A stretch of 64,000 bases of DNA from positions 576,001-640,000 of the forward strand of contig CAVPJU010000010.1 in the NCBI GenBank assembly GCA_963705505.1. Direction: 5' to 3'. Origin of the DNA: an uncultured bacterium (lineage in GTDB: Bacteria > Desulfobacterota_D > UBA1144 > Nemesobacterales > UBA2774). The notes under the pieces are model-generated. The model worked only from the letters and a program-made list of their open reading frames with translations, had not been told where the DNA came from and made no database searches. The stretch's first letter is position 1. Each line of letters opens with the position of its first letter. Shown here piece by piece: positions 6,198 through 51,000 of this stretch. The position numbers were made by a program, and so were the translations under genes.

Positions 6198-6225
6198 AAT
6201 ACGCCGAAATAAAGAGAAAGGATTC
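6198..6225 (-). promoter_or_regulatory. Putative ECF sigma promoter, copy 1 (msrA)
   Basis: GAATCC-N16-CGTATT; same motif and spacing at 42688, 50076 and 50973. Confidence 0.65.
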
Positions 6226-6261
6226 AGGATATTTACATCTCGTAAAAATCACTGAGTACGA

Positions 6262-6687
6262 TCAAGAGCGGGCACCCTTCACCCCGGAAATGCGCGCCCG
6301 AAGGAGGTCCCTTGTCACGAGATAAACTATCGGAATTCCGAGGAGGAGTTTAACGAGAGACCACCCGAACGGCTTTCCGAACGAAGCGTAGTTCGCGCTT
6401 AAAAAGTCTGCGGAGAGCACTAGTCCCCTGTTGTATAAGCCGATCAGTGTAAGGACAGAAACAACTATGAGATACAGCCACGATAGAGCCGTTAGGTAAT
6501 TACCCCACCTCTTGCCCGACCAGAGCAGAATACCGCCCGCCGTGCCGCAGACACCTCGAAAGACGATCGCGTTCACGACTATGAATACGGCCCCTGGCGG
6601 AAGATTCCCGAGCTTGTACAGTACGTAGATCCCCGTGAGCCCGGCGAGTCCCTCCAGTAATGTGAGAACTGCTATGATCTTCTTCAC
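6262..6687 (-). CDS. Hypothetical membrane protein (about 4 TM segments)
   Basis: Hydrophobic segments; starts 7 bp after the tricorn protease gene ends. Confidence 0.7.
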   Translation of the reverse strand: MKKIIAVLTLLEGLAGLTGIYVLYKLGNLPPGAVFIVVNAIVFRGVCGTAGGILLWSGKRWGNYLTALSWLYLIVVSVLTLIGLYNRGLVLSADFLSANYASFGKPFGWSLVKLLLGIPIVYLVTRDLLRARISGVKGARS

Positions 6688-6694
6688 AAGCTGA

Positions 6695-9600
6695 TTATCC
6701 GGCTCCCGACCTGTCCTCGTACTGAGGCCTTACGGGTTTCTTGGGCGGATTCTTTTTAAGCAGGTCCGTAATTACTTTGATCGCCTTATCGAGCTGAGGG
6801 TCAGGGGAATCGTTCAGATTAGCAGGCAGGTCCTCGACTTTATAATCCGGGTCCACCCCGTATCCTTCCACATCCCATTTACCGTGGGAGTTCCAGAAGG
6901 CGTAGCCGGGCGCGGTGATATACCCGCCGTCGATAAGCCCCGGATTCCCGCTGATCCCGATAAGCCCGCCGAGCGTTCTGGTCCCTACGAGAGGCCCGAG
7001 TCCCGCCTTCCGGAAGTAATAGGGAAAAGCGTCCCCGCCCGAGCCCGACCACCCGTTAATTATCATTACCTTCGGACCGTTATTCGAGACGCTCGGTGTT
7101 TTCTCGTCTTTAAATTCGCGCACCGCCCAGTAATTCAAAAGCGGTCTGTTGAGGAGCTCTATAAAGCGGTCGGGAACCTGCCCTCCTCCGTTGAACCTCT
7201 CGTCCACGATAATCGCTTCCTTTCTGGTCTGGGGAGTAAACTGACGCACCAGCTCGTTCTGGCCGAAAACGCCCGTGTCCGGGACATAGACGTATCCGAC
7301 CCTCCCCTCCGTATCTTTATCCACCTTCTTCTTATTCCCGGAAACCCAATCGAGGTACCTGAGCTTCTGGTCTTCGGTTTTGGATATAACCTTTACGGTT
7401 ATTTCCCTGGCTCCTTTCATGTCCGGCGAAGCGTTCACCGTTAACGTGACCGTATCGCCCGTGAGTCCCTGAAACGCCGCCCAGGGGTCCTCCGCGGTAT
7501 CGAGGGATTTGCCGTTTACAGCCAGTATATAGTCACCCTCCCTGACTTTGAGACCCGGCTGGGCAAGCGGGGAATAGACGTCCGCATTAAACTCGCCGCC
7601 GCTGTAAATCTTTTTTATACGGTATGCCTCATTCTTCTTATCCTGCCCGAAGTCTATACCCAGAAGGCCGACCGGAACCGACTCGGCTTCCTCTATGTCC
7701 CCTCCCCCTACATACGTGTGAGACGAATTGAGCTCGCCCACCATCTCGCTTATTACGTAATTCAGGTCTTCCCTGTCTACTACATAGGGCAGGAGGCTCG
7801 CGTACCTTTCTTTAACAGCCTGCCAGTCGACCCCGTGCATATTCGGGTCGTAGAAAAAGTCCCTCTCGATACGCCACGCGTCGTTGAATATCTGGGTCCA
7901 TTCCTTTCTCGGGTCTATAAAAGCCTTCATCCTGGTCACGTCGATCTGACCGTCTCCGGGCTTTTTCCCCTCCGAGAGGTCGATAATGCCGTACATATCA
8001 CCCGAACGGTATAGAGCCTTCGCTCCGTTTGAGGAAAGTGCGTAGTCGGTTATACCCTGTATTACGGTCTTTTCACTCCTGTCGCCGAGGTCAAAGTACT
8101 GGAGTATGCCGCTGGGCGGGTCCTGCGGATTGCTCCCCGCAGGCGGGAACCGGAGATAGACGATCTTTCCGTTAGCCGCGTTTAACGGCCCGAAGTTCCC
8201 CGCGTTCACGGGTATTTTGACCGCTCGCTCTTCGATGCCGTCGAAGTCGATAACGACACCGCCGTCATTCCCGGCATTCTCCTGTTTTGCCTGCTTCGCC
8301 GCGTTCCCTGAGACGTACTCATCTTCGTTCCGCGGGGCGAGAGGGGACATCGTGTCTTTTTTCAAAGTCAGGGCGTAGATCTGTGTGGAGTTGGGGTATA
8401 TCCAGGTGTCGTCCATATCCCCGTAGACCGGTGTAAAGCTCCGGTCGGAGTAAAAATACAGGTACTTCCCTTCGGGGTCGAATACGGGACCGTTGTTGTT
8501 ATAGAAATTACTCGTAACCCTCCTGGTAGTGCCGTTCTTGGTATCGTATATGAATACGGATTTGAGATCGTTCGGGGTATTCTTCGCGTAAGCGAGCCAC
8601 CTGCTGTCAGGCGACCATGAATAGGAGCCGATATTCTCAAAATCGTCCTTATCGACCTCCTTCGGAAGCTTCTCGCCCGTATCCACTATATAGAGCCTTC
8701 CCGTCTTGTCGGTGAACGCGAGCTTCCTGCTGTCGGGCGACCATTCGGGCTTGTAGCGGTAAACCTTCCCGTCCTTCGTAATCCTCTCCTCCTGCCCTTC
8801 CCCGTCGCTCTGCCTTATGTATAACTCGTACTCGCCCGTCCTGTCCGAAAGGTAAGCGATGTATTTCCCGTCGGGCGACCAGGCCGGGAAGCGCTCGGCT
8901 ATGCCTGAAGTATTCGTCAGGTCGCGCACACTCCCCTCCCCCGCGGGAACTGTCAGGACCTCACCCCGGGCTTCGAAGAGGGCCCTCTTGCCTGTAGGTG
9001 AAATTGAAATATCCGAGATATTATCCGAGAGGTCCTTGAGTCTTGGACGTATCTCGGGCAGGTCATAAGGGACCCTGACAGAGACCTCGCTCATGCTCTC
9101 GTCGGAGAGGCTCAGCAGGTAGAGCCTGCCGCCGTTCTCAAACACTATGTCCTCAGGACCGAGGCTCGGCCACTTTACATCGAATTCAGTAAAATTGGTG
9201 ACCTGTCTCGTCTTCTTGGTATCAGTCTCAAAGACCCACAGATTCAGTTTTTTTTCCTCGCCTCTGTCCGAAAGGAAGTAGATATTGTTCCCGTGCCACA
9301 TCGGGGTCGTATCCGTGCCGGGGAAATCGGTGAGCTTGTCGAGCGAACCCGACGCGAAATCGTAGACCCATATGTCGCTCGCCATGCCGCCCTTGTATCT
9401 CTTCCATACACCCCTCATGGGCGCCACGTATTCAAACGCGAGCTTCTTCCCGTCCGGGCTGAAGCTCCCGAGCTCGCCGTAGGGGAGCGGCAGGACTTCG
9501 GGCATACCGCCCTTCTCCGAAACCCTGAACAACCTGTTGTAGCGCTGGGTCGGGCTCATCATATTAGAGCGGAAGAGTATGCTCTTCCCGTCGGGGTACC

Positions 9601-9976
9601 AGTCCACAACAAGGTCGTCGTCGGGGTGGTGAGTCAGCCTGTTCGGGACCCCGCCCTCAGACGGCATGGTATAAACATCGGTATTGCCGTCATAATTCCC
9701 GCTGAACGCAATTTCTGTCCCGTCCGGCGAAAATTTGGGGAAGAGCTCGCCTCCATTTGGCGAGCTTAGCCTGGCCGCGACTCCCCCTTTCTTGGGTACC
9801 ATCCATATGTCTCCCGCATAAACGAAGACTATTTTATCGGCGCTCACATCCGGGAACCGAAGCATGAGGGCGTTGGGCTTCGTTTCCACATTCGCCGGTG
9901 CTTCCTTAGGCTGTGCCGATGCCGGCATGATTCCGGTCAATATGGAGAAAAATAGAATGAGAAACATACTTTTCAT
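6695..9976 (-). CDS. Tricorn-like S41 protease, secreted
   Basis: Signal peptide, PD40/beta-propeller repeats, PDZ region, GELNSSHTY, DERFNGGG and SGSGGDAF catalytic motifs. Confidence 0.93.
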   Translation of the reverse strand: MKSMFLILFFSILTGIMPASAQPKEAPANVETKPNALMLRFPDVSADKIVFVYAGDIWMVPKKGGVAARLSSPNGGELFPKFSPDGTEIAFSGNYDGNTDVYTMPSEGGVPNRLTHHPDDDLVVDWYPDGKSILFRSNMMSPTQRYNRLFRVSEKGGMPEVLPLPYGELGSFSPDGKKLAFEYVAPMRGVWKRYKGGMASDIWVYDFASGSLDKLTDFPGTDTTPMWHGNNIYFLSDRGEEKKLNLWVFETDTKKTRQVTNFTEFDVKWPSLGPEDIVFENGGRLYLLSLSDESMSEVSVRVPYDLPEIRPRLKDLSDNISDISISPTGKRALFEARGEVLTVPAGEGSVRDLTNTSGIAERFPAWSPDGKYIAYLSDRTGEYELYIRQSDGEGQEERITKDGKVYRYKPEWSPDSRKLAFTDKTGRLYIVDTGEKLPKEVDKDDFENIGSYSWSPDSRWLAYAKNTPNDLKSVFIYDTKNGTTRRVTSNFYNNNGPVFDPEGKYLYFYSDRSFTPVYGDMDDTWIYPNSTQIYALTLKKDTMSPLAPRNEDEYVSGNAAKQAKQENAGNDGGVVIDFDGIEERAVKIPVNAGNFGPLNAANGKIVYLRFPPAGSNPQDPPSGILQYFDLGDRSEKTVIQGITDYALSSNGAKALYRSGDMYGIIDLSEGKKPGDGQIDVTRMKAFIDPRKEWTQIFNDAWRIERDFFYDPNMHGVDWQAVKERYASLLPYVVDREDLNYVISEMVGELNSSHTYVGGGDIEEAESVPVGLLGIDFGQDKKNEAYRIKKIYSGGEFNADVYSPLAQPGLKVREGDYILAVNGKSLDTAEDPWAAFQGLTGDTVTLTVNASPDMKGAREITVKVISKTEDQKLRYLDWVSGNKKKVDKDTEGRVGYVYVPDTGVFGQNELVRQFTPQTRKEAIIVDERFNGGGQVPDRFIELLNRPLLNYWAVREFKDEKTPSVSNNGPKVMIINGWSGSGGDAFPYYFRKAGLGPLVGTRTLGGLIGISGNPGLIDGGYITAPGYAFWNSHGKWDVEGYGVDPDYKVEDLPANLNDSPDPQLDKAIKVITDLLKKNPPKKPVRPQYEDRSGAG

Positions 9977-10243
9977 ACAAAGACCTCGCGGATTAGCTGT
10001 AGAATAGATTAGTCGTTCCCGTATCGGACGGGACTATCGCCAAAATCAATGCAGACCGTCAAAATATAAACTCAACGTTCCTTAAAAATATACCTCAATT
10101 AATAACATATATTAGTTTTGGAGAGTTTCAGGATGCCGGAAGCCCCGAAAAGCCGCCGGGGGCATTTTTTCAAAGAAATTACGAAAAGAAACGGGAATTA
10201 CCGAGTGCCCGGAAACAAGAAAAACTATTTTCAAAATCCGGCA

Positions 10244-11362: not shown

Positions 11363-11527
11363 GTATGCTATACTCCTATTATATAAATATCGGGAAAAAT
11401 TACTAACGGGTTACCTAAACCCCGTACTGTTGTCAATACCGGGTCCTGATGGCTTGCAAATAAAAAGTCTTAATGTAAAATCCAAACAACGCATTATAAG
11501 GTAATCAAAATTAAGGAGGCTAGAAAT

Positions 11528-12724: not shown

Positions 12725-12743
12725 AATTTAGCTAATCAACCGG

Positions 12744-12765
12744 GGGGAGGGAAACCGCCCTCCCC
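12744..12765 (+). terminator. GC-rich hairpin after the thiolase gene
   Basis: GGGGAGGG-N6-CCCTCCCC; weak T tail. Confidence 0.45.
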
Positions 12766-12806
12766 TCGCTCCTTACGTACTCTTCTCTTTCCTGCACACC
12801 CAACAC

Positions 12807-12929: not shown

Positions 12930-12994
12930 AGTAAGAAGATAAAAGCGAGACTGCCTCACTATCTGCTCAAAATGACTTGCTTGTTGAACAACGG

Positions 12995-14176: not shown

Positions 14177-14225
14177 GCCTGCTCCGATAGATTCCCGTCG
14201 CAATCTTTTGTCATAGCGCCAAAGT

Positions 14226-15686: not shown

Positions 15687-15690
15687 TCCC

Positions 15691-15840: not shown

Positions 15841-15860
15841 GTATGAACTTTATCAAGAAG

Positions 15861-19014: not shown

Positions 19015-20970
19015 ATGACGAGCAATTTTTCATTCAACGGTCTCAGGGTAACGGCGTTTGAAAGCCGTAGGGCAAAAGAGATAGAGAAGCTGATACTCTA
19101 CCACGGCGGGGTGCCGAGAGTAGCGCCTTCCATGAGGGAAGTCCCTCTTTCCGAATCCGCAGAAGCCGTAAAATTCGCAGGCAAACTCACCCGGGGCAAA
19201 TTCGACATAGTAATTTTTATGACCGGGGTCGGCACGCGCTCACTGGCGGAGGCTGTATCCAAAAAATACCCGCTCGATGAATTCACGAAGGCCCTCGAAA
19301 AGACTACAATCGTGGCGCGCGGCCCGAAGCCCGTAGCCGCTCTAAGGGAGCTGGGACTAAAACCGGATATCACCGTCCCCGAGCCCAACACGTGGCGTGA
19401 TGTTTTAACGACTCTCGATAACGAGCTCGGGATAAGCGGCAAAAACGTCGCCGTCCAGGAATACGGCATCTCTAATGAAGAGTTCATCAAGGAGCTTAAA
19501 AACCGGGGCGCTTATGTTACCGCGGTCCCTGTTTATAAATGGGACCTGCCCGAAGACACAAAACCGCTCCGGGAGGCTATAAGGTCGATAACCGACAGGC
19601 ACGAAGACATATCGCTCTTCACAAGCTCCCAGCAGATTTACCATTTATTCAAGATAGCTTCGGAAGAAGGCCTGGCCGACCGGCTGAAAGAGGGGTTCAA
19701 GGATGTGGCGATTGGCTCCATTGGGCCCACGACGACGGAAACGCTTACGAGGTTCGGCCTTTCCCCTGACTACGAGCCCGACAGCCCCAAGATGGGGAAC
19801 CTGATACGCGAGATGGCGAGGTGCGGGAGCGAGCTTTTGAGGAAAAAGAGAACCGCTCACAGAAACGGCGTGGACACGACCAGCTGGCACCGCGTTCAAA
19901 TGATCTGGAACGGGGACAAAGAAAAGAAAAGAAAGGAAACTACCGGCAACTCGGCTTTCATGAAAGCCTGCCGGAGAGAAAAGACCGATTTCACACCCGT
20001 CTGGCTCATGCGCCAGGCCGGCAGGTTCATGCGCGAATACAGGGAACTCCGGGCTAAGGTGTCGTTCCTCGACCTGTGCAAAACCCCGGAGCTCGCGGCG
20101 GAAGTAACCCTTAGCGCCGTCGACAGATTAGGCGTAGACGCGGCGATAATATTCTCGGATATCCTCCTCATAATCGAGCCGCTCGGAATCGAGCTCGAAT
20201 TCTCCAAAGGGGAAGGACCGAGAATCCTAAAGCCCGTCCGCTCTGGAAACGCTGTAGAGCGTCTCCGGGAATTCGACCCCGAGAGCATGAGTTTCGTATA
20301 TGACGCCGTCTCTATCACGCGCCGGGCGCTCGACCCGGAAAAGGCGCTCATCGGCTTCGCGGGCGCGCCCTTTACCGTAGCCTCCTACGTAATAGAAGGC
20401 GGGGGATCACGGAATTACGAAAACACCAAGGGGATGATGTATAGGGACCCTGAAGCATGGCATACGCTCATGGAAAAACTGACCGGCGCGATAGGGATAT
20501 ACCTCAACAGGCAGATCGCATCGGGCGCTGACACCGTTCAGCTCTTCGACAGCTGGGTCGGATGCCTGTCGCCCGACGATTACAGCGAATACGTTTTACC
20601 GCACATGAAGAAGCTCATCGGCTCCATCGCGAAAGGCGTCCCCGTGATAAACTTCGGCACCGGAACCGGAGCGCTTCTCAAGATGATGAAGGAATGCGGG
20701 AGCACGGTCATCGGCTTCGATTGGAAAGTCGATATAGCCTCAGCCTGGAAGACGGTCGGATACGACGTAGCCGTACAGGGCAACCTCGACCCTGTAGTCC
20801 TGTTCGCTTCCCCCGCCGAGATAAAAAAAAGGGCTAAGGATATTCTCGACAAGGTTTCGGGAAGGCCGGGACACATATTCAATCTCGGTCACGGCATACT
20901 CCCCCGGACTCCCGTAGACAACGTGCTCGCGCTCATAGACGCCGTTCACGAATACTCAGGCAAAGCCTGA
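19015..20970 (+). CDS. hemE: Fused uroporphyrinogen-III synthase (HemD) and uroporphyrinogen decarboxylase (HemE)
   Basis: N-half: ARGPKP, VYKW, FTSS, SIGPTT (HemD); C-half: PVWLMRQAGR, FSDIL, QGNLDP, NLGHGI (HemE); one continuous ORF. Confidence 0.92.
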   Translation: MTSNFSFNGLRVTAFESRRAKEIEKLILYHGGVPRVAPSMREVPLSESAEAVKFAGKLTRGKFDIVIFMTGVGTRSLAEAVSKKYPLDEFTKALEKTTIVARGPKPVAALRELGLKPDITVPEPNTWRDVLTTLDNELGISGKNVAVQEYGISNEEFIKELKNRGAYVTAVPVYKWDLPEDTKPLREAIRSITDRHEDISLFTSSQQIYHLFKIASEEGLADRLKEGFKDVAIGSIGPTTTETLTRFGLSPDYEPDSPKMGNLIREMARCGSELLRKKRTAHRNGVDTTSWHRVQMIWNGDKEKKRKETTGNSAFMKACRREKTDFTPVWLMRQAGRFMREYRELRAKVSFLDLCKTPELAAEVTLSAVDRLGVDAAIIFSDILLIIEPLGIELEFSKGEGPRILKPVRSGNAVERLREFDPESMSFVYDAVSITRRALDPEKALIGFAGAPFTVASYVIEGGGSRNYENTKGMMYRDPEAWHTLMEKLTGAIGIYLNRQIASGADTVQLFDSWVGCLSPDDYSEYVLPHMKKLIGSIAKGVPVINFGTGTGALLKMMKECGSTVIGFDWKVDIASAWKTVGYDVAVQGNLDPVVLFASPAEIKKRAKDILDKVSGRPGHIFNLGHGILPRTPVDNVLALIDAVHEYSGKA

Positions 20971-41835: not shown

Positions 41836-42625
41836 TTGCAGGACAAAACGAAATTGTTTAAGGATCTCAGGAAATTCTTTTATAGAAAAGAAAGTCCGAA
41901 GCCCCGATTCGAGGACATGGCTTTTATCGAAGGTCCTCACTCACGGCTAAGGGAGCTCTGGTTTTTGTTCCGTGTGATGCGGGAGTTCTTGAAGGGATTC
42001 AGAATACTCCATTTCGCAGGCCCGGTAGTCACGGTCTTCGGCTCCGCCAGGACGAAGGAAGGACATCCGAAATACGAGCTTGCGCGGAAAGATAGGGTTT
42101 GAGCTCGCGAGCATGGGTTTTTCGGTAATGACTGGGGGCGGACCCGGCATCATGGAGGCGGCCAACAGAGGGGCGAAGGAAGCGGGCGGAAAATCGATAG
42201 GCTGCAATATCATGCTCCCGATGGAACAGAAACCGAACCCCTACCTCGACATAATGGTGACCTTCAAATACTTCTTCGTGAGGAAGCTGATGCTCCTTAA
42301 ATACTCGTACGCATTCGTCGTGCTTCCGGGCGGGGCGGGCACCATGGACGAGCTCTTCGAGACACTGACCCTGATACAGACAAAAAAGATATATAACTTC
42401 CCGATAATCCTTCTCGGCAGGGAATACTTCAAACCCCTGATGGATTTCCTCGATTTAATGGTTATCGAGCGGACGCTCGACGAGAACGACCTGGGCTTTC
42501 TGATATTGACCGATTCGGTCGACGAGGCCGTTTCCTATATACAGAAAAACATAGTGGACAAATTCGGAATAAAACTGAAAAAAGTACCCAAGCCTTCGAA
42601 GATACTCCTGGAAAAAGGCGTATGA
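41836..42625 (+). CDS. LOG/TIGR00730 family protein, frameshifted near 42089
   Basis: VTVFGSAR in one frame; TGGGPGIMEAANRGA and PGGAGTMDE in the +1 frame. Confidence 0.88.
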
Positions 42626-42687
42626 TCCCGGGCCGGCATCACTCGGCCCGCCTTCCTTAAACGATCCACCCCCGAAGATATAAGCAT

Positions 42688-42715
42688 AAATCCATCACAT
42701 CTATGCCTTCGTCTA
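42688..42715 (+). promoter_or_regulatory. Putative ECF sigma promoter, copy 2 (start of the cluster)
   Basis: AAATCC-N16-CGTCTA, 35 bp before the glucose dehydrogenase start. Confidence 0.7.
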
Positions 42716-42750
42716 ACTAGGCAACTTCAGAATTTAAGGAGAGCCAAGTT

Positions 42751-43858
42751 ATGAAAGCGATAGCAGTGATTCCCGGAAAGCCGGGCAGCGTTCACCTGGC
42801 CGAGCTTCCGAAACCGGACATAAATGAAATCCCGAACGGACGCGGAGTATTGGTGAAGGTGCTGCGAGTCGGGGTGGACGGAACGGATAAGGAAATAAAC
42901 GCCGCGGAATACGGAGCCTCGCCCGCAGGATGCGATTTTCTCGTCATAGGACACGAGAGCTTCGGAATAGTAGAAAAAGTGGGAAAGAACGTTACCGAGT
43001 TCGTCCCCGGAGACTACGTAACGGCTACCGTACGCCGTCCCGGGAGGAAGTATTTACGACAAGATCGGCAAGTACGATACGACGACAGACGACACGTACT
43101 ACGAGCACGGCATCAACCTGCTCCACGGCTTTCTCACGGAGTACTATGTCGAGGATCCCGAATACCTTGTAAAGGTCCCGAGAGGGTTAAAAGAATACGG
43201 CGTGCTGCTTGAGCCCGCGAGCGTCATCGAAAAGGGCATAGCTCAGGCGTACGAGATACAGAGACGCCTCCGCGTCTGGCGCCCGAAGCGAGCCGCGGTG
43301 CTCGGGGCGGGGACAATAGGCCTCCTCGCGACTATGGCGCTGAGGCTGAGAGGGCTGCAGGTACACACCTTCGGCAGAACGAAAGCCCCTTATCTCAACT
43401 CCGACCTCATTCAAGAGATCGGGGCGGCATATCACACGACGGACGACATCAACCTCGTTGAGGCGGCGGAGAAGTACGGTCCATTCGACATAATCTTCGA
43501 GGCGACCGGTTTCTCTCCGATAGTGTTCGAAGCGATGAATATCCTCGGTAAAAACGGCGTGCTCGTGCTTTCGAGCGTGACGGGAGGGGAACGGAAGATC
43601 GAGGTGCCCGCCGACATGATAAACCTCGGTTTCGTACTCGGGAACAAGGTCGTCGTCGGAACAGTCAACGCGAACCGCGAGTATTTCGAGATGGGCGTTA
43701 AAGACATCTCGCACGCGGAGCACGAGTGGCCGGGGTGGATTTCCAAATTCCTCACTCACCCGGTGAAGGGTCTCGAGAACTACAACGAGCTCATAAGCAC
43801 GCTCACCGAAGCGAAAGGCGCGATAAAGGTCTTCTGTGAAGTAGCCCCGATTAATTGA
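42751..43858 (+). CDS. Zn-dependent glucose 1-dehydrogenase (MDR family), frameshifted near 43045
   Basis: GVDGTD, GHES, TVRRP; then GIN..HGF.TEY, GAGTIG and GTVNAN in the +1 frame. Confidence 0.88.
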
Positions 43859-43876
43859 GCACCGGTTCTTACCACC

Positions 43877-44710
43877 ATGATGACAACATTAAAAAAACAT
43901 TGGCCTGAATACCTGATGGAGGGAGCCGGGCTCGGATTTTTCATGATATCCGCCTGTTTTTTCGTGGCGCTCCTGGAGCATCCGTCCTCTCCCGTCCACA
44001 TGGCGGTATCCGACCCGATGACGAGGAGGGTCCTCATGGGTATGGCAATGGGGCTGACCGCCATATCGATTATCTATTCCCCCTGGGGCAAGCAGTCGGG
44101 CGCGCACATCAACCCGTCGGTAACGCTGACATTCTTCAGGCTCGGAAAGGTAAGGGCCGTGGACGCGGTTTTTTACATCATTGCCCAGTTCGCGGGCGCG
44201 GCGGCAGGCGTTCTGATCGCCCACCTGGCAATCGGGAAGATCGCGTCACACCCGCATGTGAATTACGCGGCGACTTTCCCGGGCATGAAAGGGGTGGTAA
44301 TCGCGTTCATAGCGGAAGTAATCATCTCGTTCATCCTGATGACCGTCGTACTCGTGGCTTCCAACACTTCGAGCGTCGCGAGGTATACGGGCGTTTTCGC
44401 GGGCCTCCTCGTAGCGACATACATAACCTTCGAAGCCCCGATCTCGGGCATGAGCATGAACCCGGCGCGTTCCTTCGGATCGAGCCTCTTCGCGAACAGC
44501 CACGCGGGGTTGTGGATCTATTTCACCGCGCCCATATTCGGGATGCTTCTCGCTGCGGAAGCTTACGTCCGTATGAGGGGAGCGAGCGCCGTTTCCTGCG
44601 CAAAGCTCCATCATCAGAATAACAAGCGGTGCATCCACTGCGGCTACCCGGGCGAAGTTAAAGCGGAGAATCCGGCTTTGATAACTGAAAAAGTAAAAAG
44701 TTTGATATAA
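43877..44710 (+). CDS. MIP family channel (aquaporin)
   Basis: SGAHINPSVT and SMNPARS; about 6 TM segments; Cys/His-rich tail. Confidence 0.92.
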   Translation: MMTTLKKHWPEYLMEGAGLGFFMISACFFVALLEHPSSPVHMAVSDPMTRRVLMGMAMGLTAISIIYSPWGKQSGAHINPSVTLTFFRLGKVRAVDAVFYIIAQFAGAAAGVLIAHLAIGKIASHPHVNYAATFPGMKGVVIAFIAEVIISFILMTVVLVASNTSSVARYTGVFAGLLVATYITFEAPISGMSMNPARSFGSSLFANSHAGLWIYFTAPIFGMLLAAEAYVRMRGASAVSCAKLHHQNNKRCIHCGYPGEVKAENPALITEKVKSLI

Positions 44711-44745
44711 GGGATTTTTAAAATAATAAAACAGGAGGAATTACC

Positions 44746-45159
44746 ATGTTTAAATCATTCGAACTGAAAAGAGGTAAATCCGGTCTCGTCTGCTTGCTCG
44801 TGCTTCTTGCGCTCTTCTTCGGAGCGATAGGCAGTCAGGCGGCGGGCAGCATGACGACACAGCCGTTCACGGGCGTAAAGGTAAACGGCGGAACGGTAAC
44901 GCTTACAAAAGAAGGCGGCAAAACCGTCCTCACGCTGTCTGACGATTTCGTAGTCCCCCAGACCCCCGATCCGCACTGGCAGGTAGTCGACTCGAAAGGG
45001 AACGTTTACCTCCTCCAGAGACTGCCGATTAAGGGCGACAAAATAAACAAGTCCATAACGGTGCCGTCGTATGTACCGGATATTGCAAAGGTACAGATAT
45101 GGTGCGCTTACGCGGAGACGCTCCTCGGCGAGGCGCCGTTCGCTTCGCCTGTGAATTAA
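44746..45159 (+). CDS. Secreted DM13-like protein
   Basis: Signal peptide; PDPHW and VQIWC..A...LGEA resemble DM13 motifs. Confidence 0.6.
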   Translation: MFKSFELKRGKSGLVCLLVLLALFFGAIGSQAAGSMTTQPFTGVKVNGGTVTLTKEGGKTVLTLSDDFVVPQTPDPHWQVVDSKGNVYLLQRLPIKGDKINKSITVPSYVPDIAKVQIWCAYAETLLGEAPFASPVN

Positions 45160-45264
45160 AGAGGTTAATCGAATAATGTGGCGGCCGGCAGTGTTTCGAT
45201 TGCGGAGACAGGCCGGCCGGTCAGTCAGTGAAGATAAAGAAAACCCGGAAACGGAGGAAAATAA

Positions 45265-46125
45265 ATGAGAATGATCGAGCTACTTCTAACTTTACTTCTT
45301 TTCATGTCGGCGGTTTCAGCGGACGCGCAGGTGGCGGAGAAAAAATCACTCACGCTCGAAGGCGCGAATACCGTGATCGCGGGCGCGATGGCCGAGGCTA
45401 AAAAGCTTAACGCTCCGGGAGGAGTCATAGCGGTCGTGGACGACGGCGGGAACCTCATGGCGCTCGAGCGTATCGACGGGACTTTCGCAGCGGGCGCTAA
45501 CATATCGATCGGAAAGGCGAGGACTGCGGCGCTCTTTAAGAAACCGACAAAATTTTTCGAGGACGTGATTAAGAACGGGCGCACCTCTATGGTCGCGCTC
45601 GCGGACTTCACACCGCTTCAGGGCGGAGTACCCATAATCATCGACGGCGCGATAGTTGGAGCCGTGGGCGTGAGCGGCGCGGCCAGCGCGCAGCAGGACG
45701 AGGAGCTCGCCATAGCGGGCGCCGACGCGGTAATGAACGGCACGGCGGCAAATACGAACCCCGCACCGATCACGTACTTTGACAGCGCCAGGGTGCAAGC
45801 CGCGTTCGCAAAGGGTATGCCCCTAACCGAAGCCGGAAATTACAAGGTTCATGCGAGCCGCAGGACCGATCCGGGCATGGCGGAGGTCCATACAAAGGAT
45901 ACGGACATCATCTACATGCTTCAAGGCTCGGCGACACTGGTGACGGGAGGAACGGTCGTTGACGGCAAGACGACAGCCCCCGACGAGATACGCGGAAAGG
46001 AGATTGCGGGCGGTGATACACTCAAAATCAATCCGGGCGACGTGATCATCATACCGGCCGGCACACCTCACTGGTTTAAGGAAGTGCAGGGTCCGGTCCT
46101 CTATTATGTCGTTAAGGTCAGTTAA
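45265..46125 (+). CDS. GlcG/HbpS heme-binding protein fused to a cupin domain
   Basis: AVVDDGG, GKARTA, GGVPI..GAVGVSG; C-terminal EVH..PGDVIIIPAGTPHWF. Confidence 0.88.
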   Translation: MRMIELLLTLLLFMSAVSADAQVAEKKSLTLEGANTVIAGAMAEAKKLNAPGGVIAVVDDGGNLMALERIDGTFAAGANISIGKARTAALFKKPTKFFEDVIKNGRTSMVALADFTPLQGGVPIIIDGAIVGAVGVSGAASAQQDEELAIAGADAVMNGTAANTNPAPITYFDSARVQAAFAKGMPLTEAGNYKVHASRRTDPGMAEVHTKDTDIIYMLQGSATLVTGGTVVDGKTTAPDEIRGKEIAGGDTLKINPGDVIIIPAGTPHWFKEVQGPVLYYVVKVS

Positions 46126-46143
46126 CTCCGGGAGAAGACAGAA

Positions 46144-46641
46144 ATGAAAACTATAATAAGCTCTCTGATCCTTTTATTTACCATATCCTCGCCGCTCGCG
46201 GCCATTGCGGAGACACCCGTAAAGCCGGTACTAACCCTGAGCGCCGCGAAGAAAGCTGCAGACGCAGCCGAGCGCGAGGCGGCAAAGAGGGGCGCGACAG
46301 TAGTGATCGCCGTGGTTGACGACGGCGGGCACCTGATACTCCTCGAGCGGCTCGACGATACACAGGTCGCAAGCGTCGAGGTAGGAATAGGCAAAGCCAG
46401 GACCGCCGCCATATTCAGGAGACCGAGCAAGGTGTTCGAGGACCAGATACGCGACGGCCGGGTCGCCGCGCTCGCGCTCCCCGGGGCGACGCCGCTTCAG
46501 GGAGGCATACCGATCATCATAGATGGCAAGGTAGCCGGGGCTATAGGCGTCAGCGGCAATACCCCCCAGGAAGATGAAGAGATCGCAATCGTCGGGGCTT
46601 CGGCAGTCAGCGACTCGTCAGTTAAAGGAGATAAACAATGA
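46144..46641 (+). CDS. GlcG/HbpS heme-binding protein, secreted
   Basis: Same GlcG motifs; signal peptide. Confidence 0.88.
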   Translation: MKTIISSLILLFTISSPLAAIAETPVKPVLTLSAAKKAADAAEREAAKRGATVVIAVVDDGGHLILLERLDDTQVASVEVGIGKARTAAIFRRPSKVFEDQIRDGRVAALALPGATPLQGGIPIIIDGKVAGAIGVSGNTPQEDEEIAIVGASAVSDSSVKGDKQ

Positions 46642-48278
46642 GACTCGAATCAATCATATATGCAGCCGCATTCCTCTTATCCATCGTTTCCGCACTCGTC
46701 GCCCACGGCGCGGTGCCCGCGGACGTGCCGGGCGGAAAACCCGGTGCCGTCATCGATCTTGCGACCACGGAAGGGGTTAATCTCGTAAATGGGCAGTGGA
46801 CATACAGCGACGTCGAGATAACCGAAGTCGATTTCAAAGGACCCGGTGCGGACGGTCAGCCCACCGGGGCACCGATAAAAACGTACGATTATAGTCCGAA
46901 AGCGGGAGTATCGGACTACGATGACTCGAAATGGGAGAAGATAGCGCCCGAGACCCTGAATCAACGCCGCTCGACGGGGAGGATATGCTTTAACTGGTAC
47001 CGGATCAGGGTGACGATCCCCGAGAGCGTCCGGGGTTTCGCGACCGCGGGCTCGACGGTGGTGTTCGAGACCGCGATAGACGACTACGCGGAGGTCTGGG
47101 TGAACGGGGAGCTCCCCCGCTACATCGGTCAGGAGGGGGGCTCCGTGATTTCCGGATGGAACGCCCCCAACAGGCTCGTCATAGGGCGGGACGTCAAGCC
47201 GGGCCAAACCATACAGCTCGCGGTATTCGGTATGAACGGCCCGATCTCGAACCCGCCGACTAATTTCATATGGATGAGGGAGGCAAAGCTCGAGTTCTAT
47301 AAGGGGAGCGAGGTGCCGATCGCAGTAAAGCCGTCCGAAGTGAACGTGGAAGTCGTAAGGCTCGACCCCGCGATGGACGCAGTCGCCGGGCCTAACCCGA
47401 AAATATTCAAGCTAGCCGAAGGCTTCAAATTCACAGAAGGCCCCGTCTGGGTGGGTGACGGAGAATACCTCCTCTTCAGCGACCCGAACAGCAATGTTAT
47501 CTATAAATACTCGAAGGACGGAGACCTCTCCGTATTCCGCGAGCCGAGCGGGTATTCAGGCTCCGACATCGCGGAATATACGCAGCCGGGGTCAAACGGC
47601 CTCACTCTCGACAAAGCCGGCAGGCTTACGATTGACGAGCACGGGAACCACAGGGTCACGCGGATCGAGAAAGACGGCACTGTCACTGTATTGGCCGACA
47701 GCTACGAGGGTAAGAGGCTAAACAGTCCGAATGACCTGGTTTATAGGTCTGACGGCTCCCTGTACTTCACGGACCCGCCTTTCGGACTGCCCAAATTCGA
47801 GAAAGACCCAAGAAAAGAGATACCCTGGAGCGGGATATACCGAATCTCTCCTGACGGTGAAGTCGTCTTATTGAATAAGGAGTTAAAGGGACCGAACGGG
47901 ATAGCCTTTTCGCCCGATGAAAAGTACCTCTACGTCGGCAACTGGGACACGGAGAATAAGGTCGTGATGCGCTACGAAGTCAGGGAAGACGGCACTCTCT
48001 CGGAAGGACAGCGGTTCTTCGATATGACGAGCGCCCCGGGCGAGGACGCGATCGACGGAATAAAGGTCGATGCCAAAGGGAACCTGTATGTCTCGGGACC
48101 GGGCGGTGTGTGGGTGATTTCAGACGACGGTAAGCATATAGGGACTATCATTGCTCCGAGGCACGTCCACAATATGGCATGGGGAGGGGAAGACGGGAAA
48201 ACCCTCTTTCTCTGCGCGCAGAGCGGGTTATATATGATGCGCCTCGGTATTCAGGGCACAAATGTGCATTATAATTAG
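46638..48278 (+). CDS. SMP-30/gluconolactonase with an N-terminal jelly-roll (sugar-binding-like) domain, secreted
   Basis: FTEGPVW, GSNG, NSPND, PNGIAFSPD, DGIKVD; N-terminal WYR..DDYAEVWVNG. Confidence 0.88.
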   Translation: MRLESIIYAAAFLLSIVSALVAHGAVPADVPGGKPGAVIDLATTEGVNLVNGQWTYSDVEITEVDFKGPGADGQPTGAPIKTYDYSPKAGVSDYDDSKWEKIAPETLNQRRSTGRICFNWYRIRVTIPESVRGFATAGSTVVFETAIDDYAEVWVNGELPRYIGQEGGSVISGWNAPNRLVIGRDVKPGQTIQLAVFGMNGPISNPPTNFIWMREAKLEFYKGSEVPIAVKPSEVNVEVVRLDPAMDAVAGPNPKIFKLAEGFKFTEGPVWVGDGEYLLFSDPNSNVIYKYSKDGDLSVFREPSGYSGSDIAEYTQPGSNGLTLDKAGRLTIDEHGNHRVTRIEKDGTVTVLADSYEGKRLNSPNDLVYRSDGSLYFTDPPFGLPKFEKDPRKEIPWSGIYRISPDGEVVLLNKELKGPNGIAFSPDEKYLYVGNWDTENKVVMRYEVREDGTLSEGQRFFDMTSAPGEDAIDGIKVDAKGNLYVSGPGGVWVISDDGKHIGTIIAPRHVHNMAWGGEDGKTLFLCAQSGLYMMRLGIQGTNVHYN

Positions 48279-48315
48279 GCAAATTCGAAGGAGATCAAAT
48301 CCAAAGGACATTCAT

Positions 48316-49314
48316 ATGAAAGGACTATTCAAGAAGATTCATAGAGCGAAACATGCAGGCAGCAAAGACAATTCCGCACGTAACAGATGGGGCATAATTT
48401 TAGCGGGCGGTGACGGCACACGCCTCCGCTCTCTAACGAAATTGATTTCCGGAGACGAGAGACCCAAGCAATTCTGCCGCATACTGGACGAAGAATCCCT
48501 CCTCGAAAAAACTGTAAAACGGGTAGAGATAGGCATCCCCCGAAGCAATATCCTTTTATCACTCACGCGCACGCACGAAAAATTCTACAGCGACCTCTTC
48601 GATACATTCAATCAGAGCCAGCTTGTGGTTCAGCCGGCAAACCTGGGGACTGCTCCGGCGATACTTTACGGCCTCGTACGGATCGCAAGGATGAACCCCG
48701 AAGCCTCCGTCACATTCTTCCCTTCCGACCATTACCTGTCCGACGACGGAATATTCATGAGACAGGTTGAGTCGGCTTTTGAAGGGGTGGAGCGCGAACC
48801 GGGAAAGATAGTGCTCCTCGGGATAACACCGAGCTCAGCCGAGACGGAATACGGATGGATAGAGCCCGAACCCCACAACTATGACAACAACCCGGAATCA
48901 TTAACGAGAGTCAGGCGGTTCTGGGAGAAACCGGAAAAATCGACTGCGGTCGAGCTTCTGCAAAGAAGATGCCTCTGGAATAGCTTCGTCATGACCGGAA
49001 AAGTTTCTGCTTTTCTTAACATGATCAGCACGTCTCTCCCCGGGCTTTACCACGATTTCATGAGAGCGTGCGATATGTTCGGCACTCCTTCAGAGAGCGA
49101 CGCAGTCGAATACATCTATGAGAAACTCACCCCTTCGAATTTCTCACATAGGGTGCTCGAGGTGTCGACGAAAGACCTAATGGTGCTCGCCGTAAGAGAC
49201 ATCGAATGGAGCGATCTGGGTGAGCCGGGACGCGTGCTTTCAACCATGGAGAACATAGGAATACAGACGGATTGGACTCTTAAGAAAGAAAACCTCGTCC
49301 GCAAAATAGCGTAA
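48316..49314 (+). CDS. Mannose-1-phosphate guanylyltransferase-like nucleotidyltransferase
   Basis: LAGGDGTRL, PKQF, GTAPA, PSDH, EKP and WSDLG motifs. Confidence 0.88.
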   Translation: MKGLFKKIHRAKHAGSKDNSARNRWGIILAGGDGTRLRSLTKLISGDERPKQFCRILDEESLLEKTVKRVEIGIPRSNILLSLTRTHEKFYSDLFDTFNQSQLVVQPANLGTAPAILYGLVRIARMNPEASVTFFPSDHYLSDDGIFMRQVESAFEGVEREPGKIVLLGITPSSAETEYGWIEPEPHNYDNNPESLTRVRRFWEKPEKSTAVELLQRRCLWNSFVMTGKVSAFLNMISTSLPGLYHDFMRACDMFGTPSESDAVEYIYEKLTPSNFSHRVLEVSTKDLMVLAVRDIEWSDLGEPGRVLSTMENIGIQTDWTLKKENLVRKIA

Positions 49315-49392
49315 CTCTGCTCCTCCATACACACCGAACAAGAGTAATGTATATGCATGTGGAATAGCATGCATTCAGCAAGGGCAATCACC

Positions 49393-50037
49393 ATGGATAC
49401 TCAAGCCAAGCCGTTCGAATTAGGAAAAAACAGAATAGAGGCGCTGAGTGACGGCATATTCGCAATCGTCATGACGCTCCTCATATTCGAGCTCAAGACT
49501 TCGGACCTGCCGCAGCATGCATCCAACATCCAGCTCGCCCCCGCGCTTTTTAATATGTGGCCGAAGTTCCTATCATACATCGTAAGTTTTATCGGACTCG
49601 GAATCTACTGGGTAGCCCATCATTACATGTATCATTCGATAAGGCACTCGGACCGGATACTGCTCTGGCTCAATATCCTTTTCTTTATGTTCGTCTCCCT
49701 GCTCCCCTTCTCCACTAGTCTCATCAACTCATTCGGCCAGACACAGATAGCCCCCTTATTCTTCGGCGCCAACCTTACACTCATCGGATGGACGCTCTAT
49801 TTCCAGTGGCTTTATGCAAGCTCGAAGCCCGATCTTATCGCGGACTTCGTGACCAGGGAGTATGCGGAGTCCGTGCGTTTCCGGTTCCTTATAATACCGA
49901 TAATAGCGACCGTAACCATGCTCGTATGCTTCTGGAGCGTCGAGATACTGCTGATCGTATATGCGCTCCTCCTCCCGTTCTATACACTTACCGGAAAGCT
50001 GACGCCGCCGCGCGAGGCATCCATCGTAGAACAATAG
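49393..50037 (+). CDS. TMEM175 family K+ channel
   Basis: RIEALSDGIFAIVMTLL, YWVAHH and LLPFST motifs. Confidence 0.9.
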   Translation: MDTQAKPFELGKNRIEALSDGIFAIVMTLLIFELKTSDLPQHASNIQLAPALFNMWPKFLSYIVSFIGLGIYWVAHHYMYHSIRHSDRILLWLNILFFMFVSLLPFSTSLINSFGQTQIAPLFFGANLTLIGWTLYFQWLYASSKPDLIADFVTREYAESVRFRFLIIPIIATVTMLVCFWSVEILLIVYALLLPFYTLTGKLTPPREASIVEQ

Positions 50038-50075
50038 CCACCTGCCCGCAGCTCCAAATTAATAGTGAAGAAGAG

Positions 50076-50103
50076 AAATCCAAATGCGCACGGATTCCGT
50101 ATA
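50076..50103 (+). promoter_or_regulatory. Putative ECF sigma promoter, copy 3 (msrB)
   Basis: AAATCC-N16-CGTATA. Confidence 0.65.
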
Positions 50104-50146
50104 GATAGGTTAAGATATAAAAATCATTAAGGAGAGGAAAATTTCC

Positions 50147-50755
50147 ATGATAAAGACAACAGTAATTGCAGTTATAGCCATTATCGCGATATTCGTCGCT
50201 TTGAACTTGCTCGACACAGATAGAATAATTCGCGCTGATGACAGCGGCCAGCAGAAAGTGAGCGAAACCGGAACCGGGAACAACGCACAAACAAATAATA
50301 GTGGGGCGGCACAAACCGGCTTTGTAAAGCCCTCTCAAGAGGAGCTTAAAAAGAAGCTCACGCCCCTTCAGTATAAAGTCACACAGGAAAGCGGAACCGA
50401 AAGGCCGTTTAACAACGAATACTGGGATAATCATAAGGATGGAATATACGTCGACATAATCTCGGGTGAGCCGCTTTTCAGCTCCAAGGACAAATTCGAT
50501 TCGGGCACAGGGTGGCCGAGCTTCACGAAACCTCTGGTGGCCGAGAATATCGTCGAAGTGAAGGACAATAGCCTCGTTATAACGAGATTCGAAGTCAGAA
50601 GCAAGGAGGCAGATTCACATCTCGGGCACGTATTCGACGACGGGCCTCCCCCTACGGGACTCAGATACTGTATCAACTCCGCATCGCTCCGCTTTATACC
50701 GAAAGCGAATCTGGAGAAAGAGGGCTACGGGGAGTTCCTGGTTTTATTCCAATAA
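50147..50755 (+). CDS. msrB: Methionine-R-sulfoxide reductase with an N-terminal signal or anchor
   Basis: GTERPF, GTGWPSF, HLGHVF and RYCINS motifs. Confidence 0.95.
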
Positions 50756-50797
50756 GCCTGCATCGCCTGAAGAGGCCAATAATTTAATCGACTACAG

Positions 50798-50845
50798 GGC
50801 TGCTGCCGGTAACGATCTCTTCGTTATAAGCAGCAGCCTTTTTTT
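50798..50845 (+). terminator. Intrinsic terminator after msrB
   Basis: GGCTGCTGC..GCAGCAGCC followed by T7. Confidence 0.8.
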
Positions 50846-50972
50846 ATATTTTGGGGCTCAAGGTACGAAGCCCGGGTAAGTGGTTTTAATTCTTCTCGGG
50901 CGGGACATCGCCGGTCACACAGCCGTCCGTTTTGACTTTTTTCAATCTTAATACTCCGTTAATGCAATCCCT

Positions 50973-51000
50973 AAATCCCTCGTATAAGTTCATTCGTCTA
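50973..51000 (+). promoter_or_regulatory. Putative ECF sigma promoter, copy 4 (DM13-GMC block)
   Basis: AAATCC-N16-CGTCTA; extended identity with copy 2 (TAAATCC..TTCGTCTAACT). Confidence 0.7.

Follow-up and report, generated by a model that had tools for sequence, protein, structure and literature searches.

Predicted ECF sigma factor promoters of methionine-repair genes and a sugar/redox island in a Dadabacteria-type bacterium probably fall into two circuits separated by one -10 base

Results

Genes and sites at the locus

The window, i.e., the whole stretch of 64,000 nucleotides that was analysed, carries four copies of the bipartite motif RAATCC-N16-CGTMTW. One copy precedes msrA, three lie in a sugar/redox island that also contains msrB, and an operon with the start of an ECF sigma factor gene follows at the right end. 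The features are listed below.

5564..6106, minus strand: msrA, cytoplasmic peptide-methionine (S)-S-oxide reductase (TIGR00401 over cut-off; PF01625, PMSR)
6198..6225, minus strand: predicted CGTA-class ECF promoter of msrA (GAATCC-N16-CGTATT)
42688..42715, plus strand: predicted CGTC-class ECF promoter of the gdh block (TAAATCC-N16-CGTCTAAC; 9/9 loci tested, all C)
42751..43858, plus strand: gdh, Zn-dependent glucose dehydrogenase (ADH_N + Glu_dehyd_C)
43877..50037, plus strand: rest of the first block, with a MIP channel, an unknown protein of 137 aa, two HbpS/GlcG-like proteins, a gluconolactonase-like protein (SGL), a nucleotidyl transferase and a TMEM175-like channel
50076..50103, plus strand: predicted CGTA-class ECF promoter of msrB (AAATCC-N16-CGTATA)
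50147..50755, plus strand: msrB, with a hydrophobic N-terminus (TIGR00357 over cut-off; SelR)
50796..50847, plus strand: predicted intrinsic terminator 3' of msrB (-28.6 kcal/mol, z -6.3, U-tract)
50973..51000, plus strand: predicted CGTC-class ECF promoter of the DM13/GMC block (TAAATCC-N16-CGTCTAAC; 10/10 loci tested, all C)
51080..60888, plus strand: second block, with DM13, a GMC oxidoreductase, a glyoxalase, an FMN reductase (frameshifted), an unknown protein, a GH63/MGH1-like glycosidase (frameshifted) and a glycogen-debranching amylo-alpha-1,6-glucosidase
60920..63049, minus strand: GAF + AAA sigma54 activator (enhancer-binding protein; Sigma54_activat, GAF, HTH_8)
63334..63363, plus strand: conserved GATATTTCGT repeat, a candidate enhancer ~125 nt 5' of the sigma54 site
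63465..63480, plus strand: predicted sigma54 -24/-12 site TGGCAC-N5-TTGCA (14/15 Dadabacteria loci)
63561..63860, plus strand: STAS-like protein (STAS_2 E 1e-4, below gathering score)
63883..64000, plus strand: start of the gene for an ECF sigma factor of 222 aa, here called the island ECF, which runs on past the window to G000:C10:640551

A sequence check placed all four 28-mers of the original prediction exactly where it had put them, intergenic and on the same strands, and the TAAATCC and TTCGTCTAACT that it had described as common to the gdh and DM13 copies were found. The downstream genes start 91 (msrA), 35 (gdh), 43 (msrB) and 79 nt (DM13) after the motif. Genes were called with a home-made caller that missed the N-terminal half of gdh and one small gene (both added by hand) and may have misplaced starts. 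The domain matches (PMSR, ADH_N + Glu_dehyd_C, SelR, DM13, GMC) upheld the proposed gene labels. The DM13 copy does follow closely on a terminator, with the strong msrB hairpin at 50796-50840 (0/200 shuffles as good) ~130 nt ahead of it. No U-tract terminator was seen upstream of msrB, which sits within the island and whose product is probably exported, judging from its sequence. A one-base frameshift near 43040 breaks gdh in two in this assembly; the gene is intact (368 aa) in G003 and G007, where the first-block gene order is identical. The metabolic role of the island would be glucose release and oxidation.

Occurrence of the motif

Four matches lie within the window against 0.12 expected, with 0/100 shuffles equal, but this count is circular because the pattern was derived from those same four sites. 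Outside the window, the same pattern gave 13 matches at spacer 16 versus a mean of 4.6 (maximum 7) at 22 other spacers, and for upstream-oriented intergenic matches 3 versus 0.36 (maximum 1). The RATCC variant gave 30 versus 11.8 (maximum 18) in total and 8 versus 0.91 (maximum 4) in the upstream-oriented intergenic class. The motif is thus commoner than chance, as the original prediction required, and is so at spacer 16 only. In ten same-genus genomes, RATCC-N16-CGTMTA occurs in 12-22 copies per genome compared with 0-1 for the reversed pattern, a control that underestimates the background; since it was lower than the spacer controls (~5 in this genome), we relied on the latter. When 1847 upstream regions were scanned without bias for gapped 4-mers, the CGTCTA form (AATC-N19-TCTA, 21 vs 6.8) ranked 27th, and therefore a blind search of one genome would not have picked out the motif. 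A sigma70 reading was rejected, as a consensus scan of 42000-56200 returned 6 sites versus 10.6 expected, none of them on the motif copies.

Conservation and the fourth -10 base

Across the genus, the boxes are kept before orthologous genes and the spacers drift: in five ortholog sets, 8-10 of 10 box positions are invariant versus 2-7 of 16 spacer positions. It is very improbable that the copies are chance matches or sites of a non-sigma regulator. Such a reading could draw on the origin of the pattern in the four sites, the ~5 copies per genome at any spacer, the rank of 27th and the 9 of 17 exact genomic matches that were scored as other than upstream-intergenic; it is opposed by this box conservation, by the excess specific to spacer 16, by an orientation that is always toward the gene, 20-260 nt off, and by a geometry identical to that of tested ECF11 promoters. 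The proposal of ECF-type promoters thus held, and the four sites are real, conserved, predicted start signals for alternative (ECF) sigma factors of this Dadabacteria-type bacterium, where they would be used as promoters.

In the -10 box, the base at position four goes with the gene. It is A before msrA (11/11), msrB (11/11), the fasciclin gene (9/9) and the DUF547 gene (7/7), and C before gdh (9/9), the DM13 gene (10/10, including G030 and G040 of another family) and an anti-sigma gene (21/21). Upstream of msrA orthologues, ATC-N17-CGTA was found in 10/10 same-genus and 1/3 other-genus genomes, and the msrB site is present, with A throughout, in 10/10 same-genus genomes plus G013. Before the anti-sigma gene, ATC-N17-C[GA]TC stands in 21/23 loci of two families, other spacers giving 0-3. 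A/C swaps were seen in none of 10 site groups as tallied, or in 1/10 if the second msrB gene (msrB2) is counted as an exception, versus 39/95 comparable spacer columns (p 0.005 and p 0.04, respectively, the kin not being independent). At the msrB2 site the base is C in G000 (15-nt spacer) and G006 and A in five others, and the site of a small secreted-protein gene shows A in 9/9 genus loci and C in three of another family. Genome-wide counts outside the genus did not follow the presence of the sigmas, with p 0.51 for CGTA sites versus SigK-like sigmas, and p 0.04 for CGTC sites versus the island ECF (n=38, kin not independent). Judging by sequence comparison, the sites probably fall into two circuits separated by one -10 base. 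The single regulon of the original prediction is therefore probably wrong, the base being fixed by gene and the CGTC copies following a different ECF.

CGTA sites and SigK-like sigma factors

Other CGTA targets are fasciclin (twice), DUF547/FAD-4Fe4S, TlpA-CcdA-like, msrB2, EgtD-like methyltransferase and DUF4331 genes. Elsewhere in the genome, CGTA sites adjoin SigK-like sigmas, for which the NCBIfam SigK model is the first or second match at 146-169 bits, under its cut-off of 226. Sigma C3 is followed at +1 by an RskA_C protein, with a conserved site 3' of C3-rskA, and C6 by a Cupin_7 (ChrR cupin) protein in a locus that bears two TGATCC-N16-CGTA-type sites; at C8 the RskA_C gene is divergent. 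The top solved-structure match of C3 is R. sphaeroides sigmaE. Inspection of the sequences revealed no HxxxCxxC in the N-terminus of the C6 Cupin_7 protein and no cysteine in sigma4 of C3. No autoregulatory site was found for the SigK-like sigmas in Dadabacteria, and none lies within 1.5 kb upstream of the C6-type sigma in 9/9 loci (L311-L319). This genome (93.6% complete) has no CMAS match (cfa) at E 1e-20, and its photolyase gene has no site in the 500 nt upstream. In other phyla, SigK-like homologues have ATC-N17-CGTA upstream in 12/27 loci, other spacers giving 0-3.

The sigma54-STAS-ECF operon

The activator gene is divergent from the sigma operon, a position kept in relatives and distant homologues. 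An ATTTCG[TA] box lies upstream in 12/12 loci aligned on STAS, similar repeats occur in 8 distant loci, and the GATATTTCGT repeat may be an enhancer. The distant loci show GG-N10-GC in 8/8, as read by eye, and rpoN is present in this genome. The STAS-like protein is possibly an anti-anti-sigma. The ECF gene, absent from the original prediction, is followed past the window by a CGTC-class site (C10:640645) and a gene for a 71-aa zf-HC2 anti-sigma (over cut-off), and further on by one site of the CGTA class (640955) and one of the CGTC class (641573). A complex model of the ECF and the 71-aa protein, with the contact on sigma4, scored 0.79 (best of three controls 0.00) in runs with at least 91% contact agreement and a partner pLDDT of at least 82. 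The score mark was reached by 51/78 solved and 2/108 mismatched pairs, and the score may pass through likeness to solved sigma/anti-sigma pairs. The best NCBIfam match of the island ECF is PRK11922 (154 vs cut-off 204).

Distant homologues (46-51% identity) keep the order activator-STAS-ECF-ZAS, and in nine annotated loci gdh follows in six and MIP in four. These loci carry CAAC-N17-CGTCT (5 vs 1 over 14 other spacers). Their apparent ATCC-N16-CGT excess was set aside, as most of it fell inside the coding sequence of the sigma. Among 251 genomes of another phylum, no close homologues of the distant ECF were found at E 1e-60.

Discussion

Which sigma factor reads which site

We consider it rather likely, from the sequence comparisons, that CGTA sites are read by SigK/RpoE-like sigma(s) and CGTC sites by the island ECF. 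Both sets would share the -35 (R)ATCC and the 16-nt spacer and differ at the fourth -10 base. One or both of C3 (with RskA) and C6 (with the ChrR cupin) would read the CGTA set and thereby set off an oxidative and envelope methionine-repair response. The GAF-AAA activator would start transcription of the STAS-ECF operon from its sigma54 promoter, and the island ECF starting at 63883 would then read the gdh block, the DM13/GMC block, the anti-sigma gene and a further CGTC target, an acyl-CoA ligase/acyltransferase gene. Glucose would be freed from glycogen or glucosides and oxidised, and the ECF would induce its own zinc-finger anti-sigma in a negative feedback loop. The original prediction had linked msrB to the sugar genes through a common regulon; that part is probably wrong, but the link may persist if msrB is transcribed both from a CGTA promoter of its own and by read-through that starts at the gdh promoter. 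The sigma-to-site pairing and the signals are those that we infer.

The pairing is suggested by the anti-sigma loci, where CGTC sites follow the island ECF in 21 of 23 cases, including G030, G032, G033, G035, G036 and G098, in which no SigK-like match was found at E 1e-27. The sole SigK-like gene of G030 is broken by two stops and one frameshift; its island retains two perfect CGTC sites, and its msrAB site reads CGTAAA. At the loop that reads the -10 box, the island ECF has FRTDS, which resembles FRGDS of E. coli sigmaE/AlgU, and C3 has YDPER, which resembles FDPSR of R. sphaeroides sigmaE; PMC7776599 (Table S1) ties these loop positions to the -10 base. In B. subtilis, CGTA versus CGTC distributes promoters among sigmas, although sigmaW also reads certain CGTC promoters (PMC5758882).

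Several observations speak against this two-set model. G004 and G009 have lost the island ECF by deletion, wholly or for the most part, but their CGTC sites are intact. The island ECF has His where, according to PMC7776599, Arg predicts -32 T, and its distant homologues adjoin AAC, not ATC. Two other paralogues here combine Arg at the -32-reading position with a C-type loop, msrB2 and the small secreted-protein gene occur with either base, and site counts outside the genus do not go with the sigmas present.

Some of these points would fit a single SigK/RpoE-like sigma, most likely C3 with RskA, reading RATCC-N16-CGTMTA throughout, so that methionine repair, the sugar island and the anti-sigma of the island ECF are induced together. 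We regard this as unlikely. It would explain the ATCC -35 at all sites, which fits the Arg at the -32-reading position of SigK-like sigmas, the C3 type in 9/10 same-genus genomes, the CGTC sites of G004 and G009 and the two forms of msrB2. However, the base is fixed gene by gene, CGTC sites occur in six genomes (83-95% complete) in which no intact SigK-like sigma was found, the C3 loop is A-type, and the P. syringae ECF11 promoters tabulated in PMC5507510 (Table 3) are CGTA in 18/18 cases, in a motif-selected list scored against TGATCC-N16-CGTA.

It is improbable, too, that the main reader of the CGTC sites is another of the five paralogues of the island-ECF type (C10:524244 or C2:89508), or that several of them share this task, with redundant or cross-wired input. 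These two are the paralogues with the C-type loop and Arg, and the three weaker paralogues in each of G004 and G009 would account for the sites kept there. Against this, all three G030 paralogues have His at that position, as does the island ECF, the best-conserved CGTC site precedes the anti-sigma gene of the island ECF itself, and distant homologues tie the island ECF to CGTCTAA sites and gdh.

It is conceivable, though doubtful, that the Dadabacteria sigma54-driven ECF, from a family for which no promoter is described, moved its -35 preference from GCAAC, the box at its distant homologues, to RATCC, that of the unrelated SigK/RpoE-like sigmas. On this reading the two regulons would be one -10 base apart and a single A/C change would move a gene between circuits; msrB2 and the small secreted-protein gene look like cases of such a move. 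A true one-base partition would show cleanly how point mutation can switch a gene's regulon, and would put the ECF protein-DNA code, which mispredicts the -32 base here, to a natural test.

Comparison with known systems

The CGTA half is the methionine-repair regulon expected of the ECF11/18/19 type, new for this phylum only. The proposed likeness to RpoE-ChrR promoters stood for msrA and msrB and failed for gdh and DM13. As in ECF11 systems (R. sphaeroides sigmaE; P. syringae PSPTO_1043), the core ATCC-N16-CGTA precedes the msrA, msrB, fasciclin and DUF547 genes, and the gene at +1 of C6 encodes a soluble ChrR-cupin protein; the PMC7826278 supplement gives the ECF11 promoter as GTGATC/CGTA. 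Unlike in ECF11, the CGTC sites of gdh and DM13 fall outside the consensus, the first -35 bases vary (AA, GA, AG, TG), no site lies upstream of the sigma, cfa was not found, the photolyase gene lacks a site, and the best family matches of the local sigmas are SigK-like and under cut-off. The same supplement describes RskA or ChrR partners and ATC/CG(TA) promoters for ECF18/ECF19 (the SigK-RskA clade, including ECF19s19 with a ChrR cupin), as seen here, and lists fasciclin, SelR (MsrB) and DUF4331 in ECF18 neighbourhoods, all CGTA targets here. C3 has RskA_C at +1, as in ECF18, but lacks the two conserved sigma4 cysteines of that group; this lineage is unlisted there, and this genome has three paralogues and targets scattered rather than beside the sigma.

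For the CGTC half, a promoter, a feedback loop and a target island can be proposed for an ECF type placed under sigma54. Our search of papers readable without subscription returned no description of such a circuit. The closest described group, a lead by text description only, is ECF270, with a soluble ZAS at +1 in Deltaproteobacteria, Nitrospirae, Ignavibacteriae and Planctomycetes (PMC7826278 supplement), resembling the small soluble zinc-finger anti-sigma and the taxonomic range here. That paper records no conserved promoter or context for ECF270, unlike this locus, at which the promoter, the sigma54 site, the STAS gene and the activator are all conserved. In P. syringae, HrpR/HrpS and sigma54 transcribe the ECF gene hrpL under negative feedback (PMC5263251). 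The -24/-12 site and the enhancer-binding protein, both on the upstream side of the ECF gene, and rpoN, all known here from sequence, match that cascade, which differs in its promoter-occlusion feedback and secretion targets from the self-induced anti-sigma and sugar/redox targets proposed here. The sorting by CGTA versus CGTC behind a common -35, with partial overlap, resembles that of B. subtilis sigmaW, sigmaX, sigmaM and sigmaV (PMC5758882), although the -35 is RATCC here and TGAAAC there and the target genes are unrelated. As a whole, we conclude that the system is a variant of known ECF regulation.

Promoter-like sites in and beyond the window

The original prediction placed four copies of RAATCC-N16-CGTMTW before msrA, msrB and a sugar/redox gene cluster (the island). 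All four were confirmed as intergenic sites oriented toward their genes at 35–91 nt, and the terminator reported ahead of copy 4 is real, lying about 130 nt before it:

6198-6225, minus strand: copy 1, before msrA
42688-42715, plus strand: copy 2, before the glucose dehydrogenase gene gdh
50076-50103, plus strand: copy 3, before msrB
50973-51000, plus strand: copy 4, before the DM13 gene

The in-window count (4 against 0.12 expected) is a circular test. Outside the window, the exact pattern had 13 matches at spacer 16, compared with a mean of 4.6 (maximum 7) at 22 other spacers; for upstream-oriented matches the figures were 3 and 0.36 (maximum 1). The relaxed RATCC..CGTMTW gave 30 matches against 11.8 (maximum 18) at 22 other spacers, and 8 against 0.91 (maximum 4) when upstream-oriented. 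RATCC-N16-CGTMTA has 12–22 copies per genome in 10 genomes of the genus over a spacer background of about 5. Among same-genus orthologues of five gene sets, both boxes are invariant at 8–10 of 10 positions, the spacer at 2–7 of 16. The msrA site is kept in 10/10 same-genus genomes and 1/3 other genera, the msrB site in 10/10 same-genus genomes, the gdh site in 9/9 loci tested and the DM13 site in 8/8 tested plus two of another family; four more distant msrB orthologues gave no strict match. With the low rank of the motif in a blind word-pair scan (27) on one side and these counts on the other, chance matches are hardly credible as an explanation.

The genome under study has further upstream copies:

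contig C6: two, before a fasciclin gene, directly past an ECF and ChrR-cupin pair
contig C3: one, before genes for DUF547 and a FAD/4Fe-4S membrane protein, directly past an ECF and RskA pair
elsewhere: one, before a TlpA-like/CcdA-like pair
C6:307359: one, before this gene, presumably leucyl-tRNA synthetase-like by sequence resemblance
up to 1.6 kb beyond the right edge of the window: three, before a 71-aa zf-HC2 protein (the anti-sigma), a small secreted protein and an acyl-CoA ligase/acyltransferase

Among the matches listed (80 regions around 149 sites, with 129 further matches beyond these), relatives add a second msrB (msrB2), an EgtD-like methyltransferase, the site of which is decayed in the genome under study, and DUF4331.

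Two classes of sites

The fourth -10 base is gene-fixed as A for msrA (11/11), msrB (11/11), the proximal fasciclin (9/9), DUF547 (7/7), msrB2 (5/5), egtD (4/4) and, in the genus only, the small secreted gene (9/9). It is gene-fixed as C for gdh (9/9), DM13 (10/10) and the anti-sigma (21/21); the noted likeness of copies 2 and 4 singles out the C class. This tally excludes loci that lack a site (msrA: G011, G013; anti-sigma: G013, G040). It also excludes msrB2 of the genome under study and of G006, where the base is C, three family f7 sites at the small secreted gene, likewise C, and the ligase sites, four of them C and two T. In spacer columns with an A or C majority, A/C swaps occurred in 39/95, giving p = 0.005, or 0.04 once msrB2 is entered as one swap, among relatives that are not independent. 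The proposed single regulon for msr and sugar genes is unlikely to hold; two circuits are the probable arrangement, with SigK-like sigmas serving a CGTA repair set and a sigma54-made island ECF serving a CGTC island set.

Candidate sigma factors for the CGTA class

The genome is 2.88 Mb in size and 93.6% complete, with the window at C10:576001-640000; it has rpoN and 26 Sigma70_r2 matches, 13 of ECF length. SigK was the first or second match, under the cut-off, of three sigmas, named C3, C6 and C8 by contig. ATC-N17-CGTA lies at most 300 nt upstream in 12 of 27 SigK-like loci, chosen by inspection from 73 non-Dadabacteria loci, compared with 0–3 at other spacers. The C3 type was found in 9/10 same-genus genomes and the C6 type in 7/10. 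Because G004 and G007 are without the C6 type and retain CGTA sites, C3 is the better single candidate reader. The C8-type sigma adjoins a distinct conserved site, TAAACC-N16-CGTATA. This third ECF-type site, (T/G)AAAC[CT]-N16-CGTATA overall, occurs at C8:66765, C8:86856, C6:354576 and upstream of C3:101110, preceding the RskA gene that diverges from the C8 sigma, an exported second copy of msrA, a 148-aa gene and the C3 tandem two-sigma operon.

The suggested resemblance to RpoE-ChrR promoters stood in part: the CGTA sites share the geometry of ECF11 promoters, described as TGATCC-N16-CGTA for tested cases (PMC5507510) and as GTGATC/CGTA in the group descriptions of PMC7826278, but membership in ECF11 fails, neither autoregulation nor sites at its core targets being found. 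In the same group descriptions the promoter is TGCATCTT/CGTA for ECF18, whose neighbourhoods include fasciclin, SelR and DUF4331, and ATC/CG for ECF19, one subgroup of which has a ChrR cupin (PMC7826278).

The island ECF and the CGTC class

63465-63480: sigma54 site, upstream of a STAS gene and the island ECF, in 14/15 loci
63883: start of the island ECF, preceded by the sigma54 site and the weakly matched STAS gene, with a GAF-AAA activator opposite

Orthologues of this ECF occur in 19/101 genomes of the order, and ATC-N17-C[GA]TC precedes its anti-sigma in 21/23 loci (other spacers 0–3). Six genomes with this anti-sigma motif had no SigK-like match at E 1e-27; in five the best C3 match has at most 35% identity. 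The sixth, G030, carries a SigK-like gene (L399, G030:C7:156800-157300) broken by a frameshift and two in-frame stops; this genome's CGTC sites before MIP and before DM13 are perfect, and its msrAB fusion site reads CGTAAA. The fusion itself is located inside the island.

Metagenomic homologues (46–51% identity) keep the activator-STAS-ECF-ZAS order, with gdh next in 6/9 and MIP in 4/9 annotated loci. CAAC-N17-CGTCT lies downstream in 5 cases versus 1 over 14 other spacers, from about three independent loci. Two distant loci (L260:4992-5065, L271:882-955) have CAAC-N17-CGTCTAA and AATCC-N16-CGTAA in tandem before one small gene, which suggests dual input. A second small zinc-finger anti-sigma-like ORF stands between ECF and gdh, shortly before gdh, in L258, L260, L262 and L263. 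The genome under study has a second island-type ECF (C2:89508-93071), likewise with an upstream sigma54 site and a divergent activator-like gene.

The modeled ECF/anti-sigma complex scored 0.79 against 0.00 for the best control, with contact agreement of at least 91% and partner pLDDT of at least 82, the partner sitting on sigma residues 199-214; the pass mark was reached by 51/78 solved and 2/108 mismatched pairs. The score may stem from likeness to solved pairs.

Oxidative or envelope stress would free the SigK-like sigmas, which would transcribe Msr enzymes, the TlpA/CcdA-like electron route and fasciclin. A separate GAF-sensed signal would fire sigma54 to make the island ECF, which in turn would transcribe glycosidases, glucose dehydrogenase, GMC/DM13, gluconolactonase and its own anti-sigma. 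The role in sugar metabolism is suggested by domain names. Because no U-tract terminator was found upstream of msrB, coupling to the island by read-through could occur; in family f7, msrA or msrAB is likewise among island genes.

Counter-evidence and the residue code

Outside the genus, CGTA counts do not follow sigma presence, which counts against two circuits, and overlap between the classes is possible because B. subtilis sigmaW reads some CGTC promoters (PMC5758882). One sigma reading all sites nevertheless seems unlikely beside the gene-fixed -10 base. In G004 and G009 the island ECF is gone and CGTC sites are retained, which counts against the island ECF as reader; the deletion looks recent in G004, where the remnant is 89% identical, or else paralogues take over. 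The deletions are independent (L341, G004:C45; L344-L345, G009:C17): the STAS-ECF genes are missing along with further parts of the island, and the promoters remain. In G004 the gluconolactonase gene now follows the gdh promoter.

The loop reading the -10 base is named in PMC7776599 (Table S1) and PMC6411747. In the island ECF it reads FRTDS, which resembles the FRGDS of E. coli sigmaE and AlgU; C3 has YDPER, like R. sphaeroides sigmaE and close to B. subtilis sigmaW. From these known cases, an FRTDS-like loop would select C and a YDPER-like loop A. Against the island ECF, its residue at the position where an Arg would predict -32 T is His, and two of its paralogues combine Arg there with a C-type loop. 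Two Arg-bearing sigmas adjoin AAAC sites, so the code leaves -32 unsettled here. The rules quoted from PMC7776599 (Dataset S3) link Lys at the -31 position to a preference for C and Gly/Ala at the -34 position to looser specificity; this fits the CC of both classes and the variable first base of the island class. Another paralogue as reader of the CGTC sites, set against the 21/23 anti-sigma loci, is doubtful, slightly more so than a single sigma. We retain the two-circuit reading.

Condition of the island genes

Five island genes are frameshift-split relative to intact G003/G007 copies (LOG-like, gdh, FMN reductase, GH63 and the small secreted protein), plausibly by long-read assembly error:

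window ~42080, ~43040, ~54720, ~57980: frameshifts
C10:641024-641350: frameshift, beyond the window

Two DM13 domains stand in tandem in the DM13 gene (51080-51922) of this genome and in that of G007; G003, G004 and G030 have one. Elsewhere in the window, 19015-20970 encodes a HemD-like uroporphyrinogen-III synthase fused to HemE uroporphyrinogen decarboxylase, with ferrochelatase next.

Comparison with known systems

In the literature searched, no description was found of the RATCC/CGTCTA promoter, the self-induced anti-sigma or the conserved sugar island. The CGTA regulon is of an already known kind. One-base promoter sorting is already known in B. subtilis, and a sigma54-to-ECF cascade is known from HrpL (PMC5263251).
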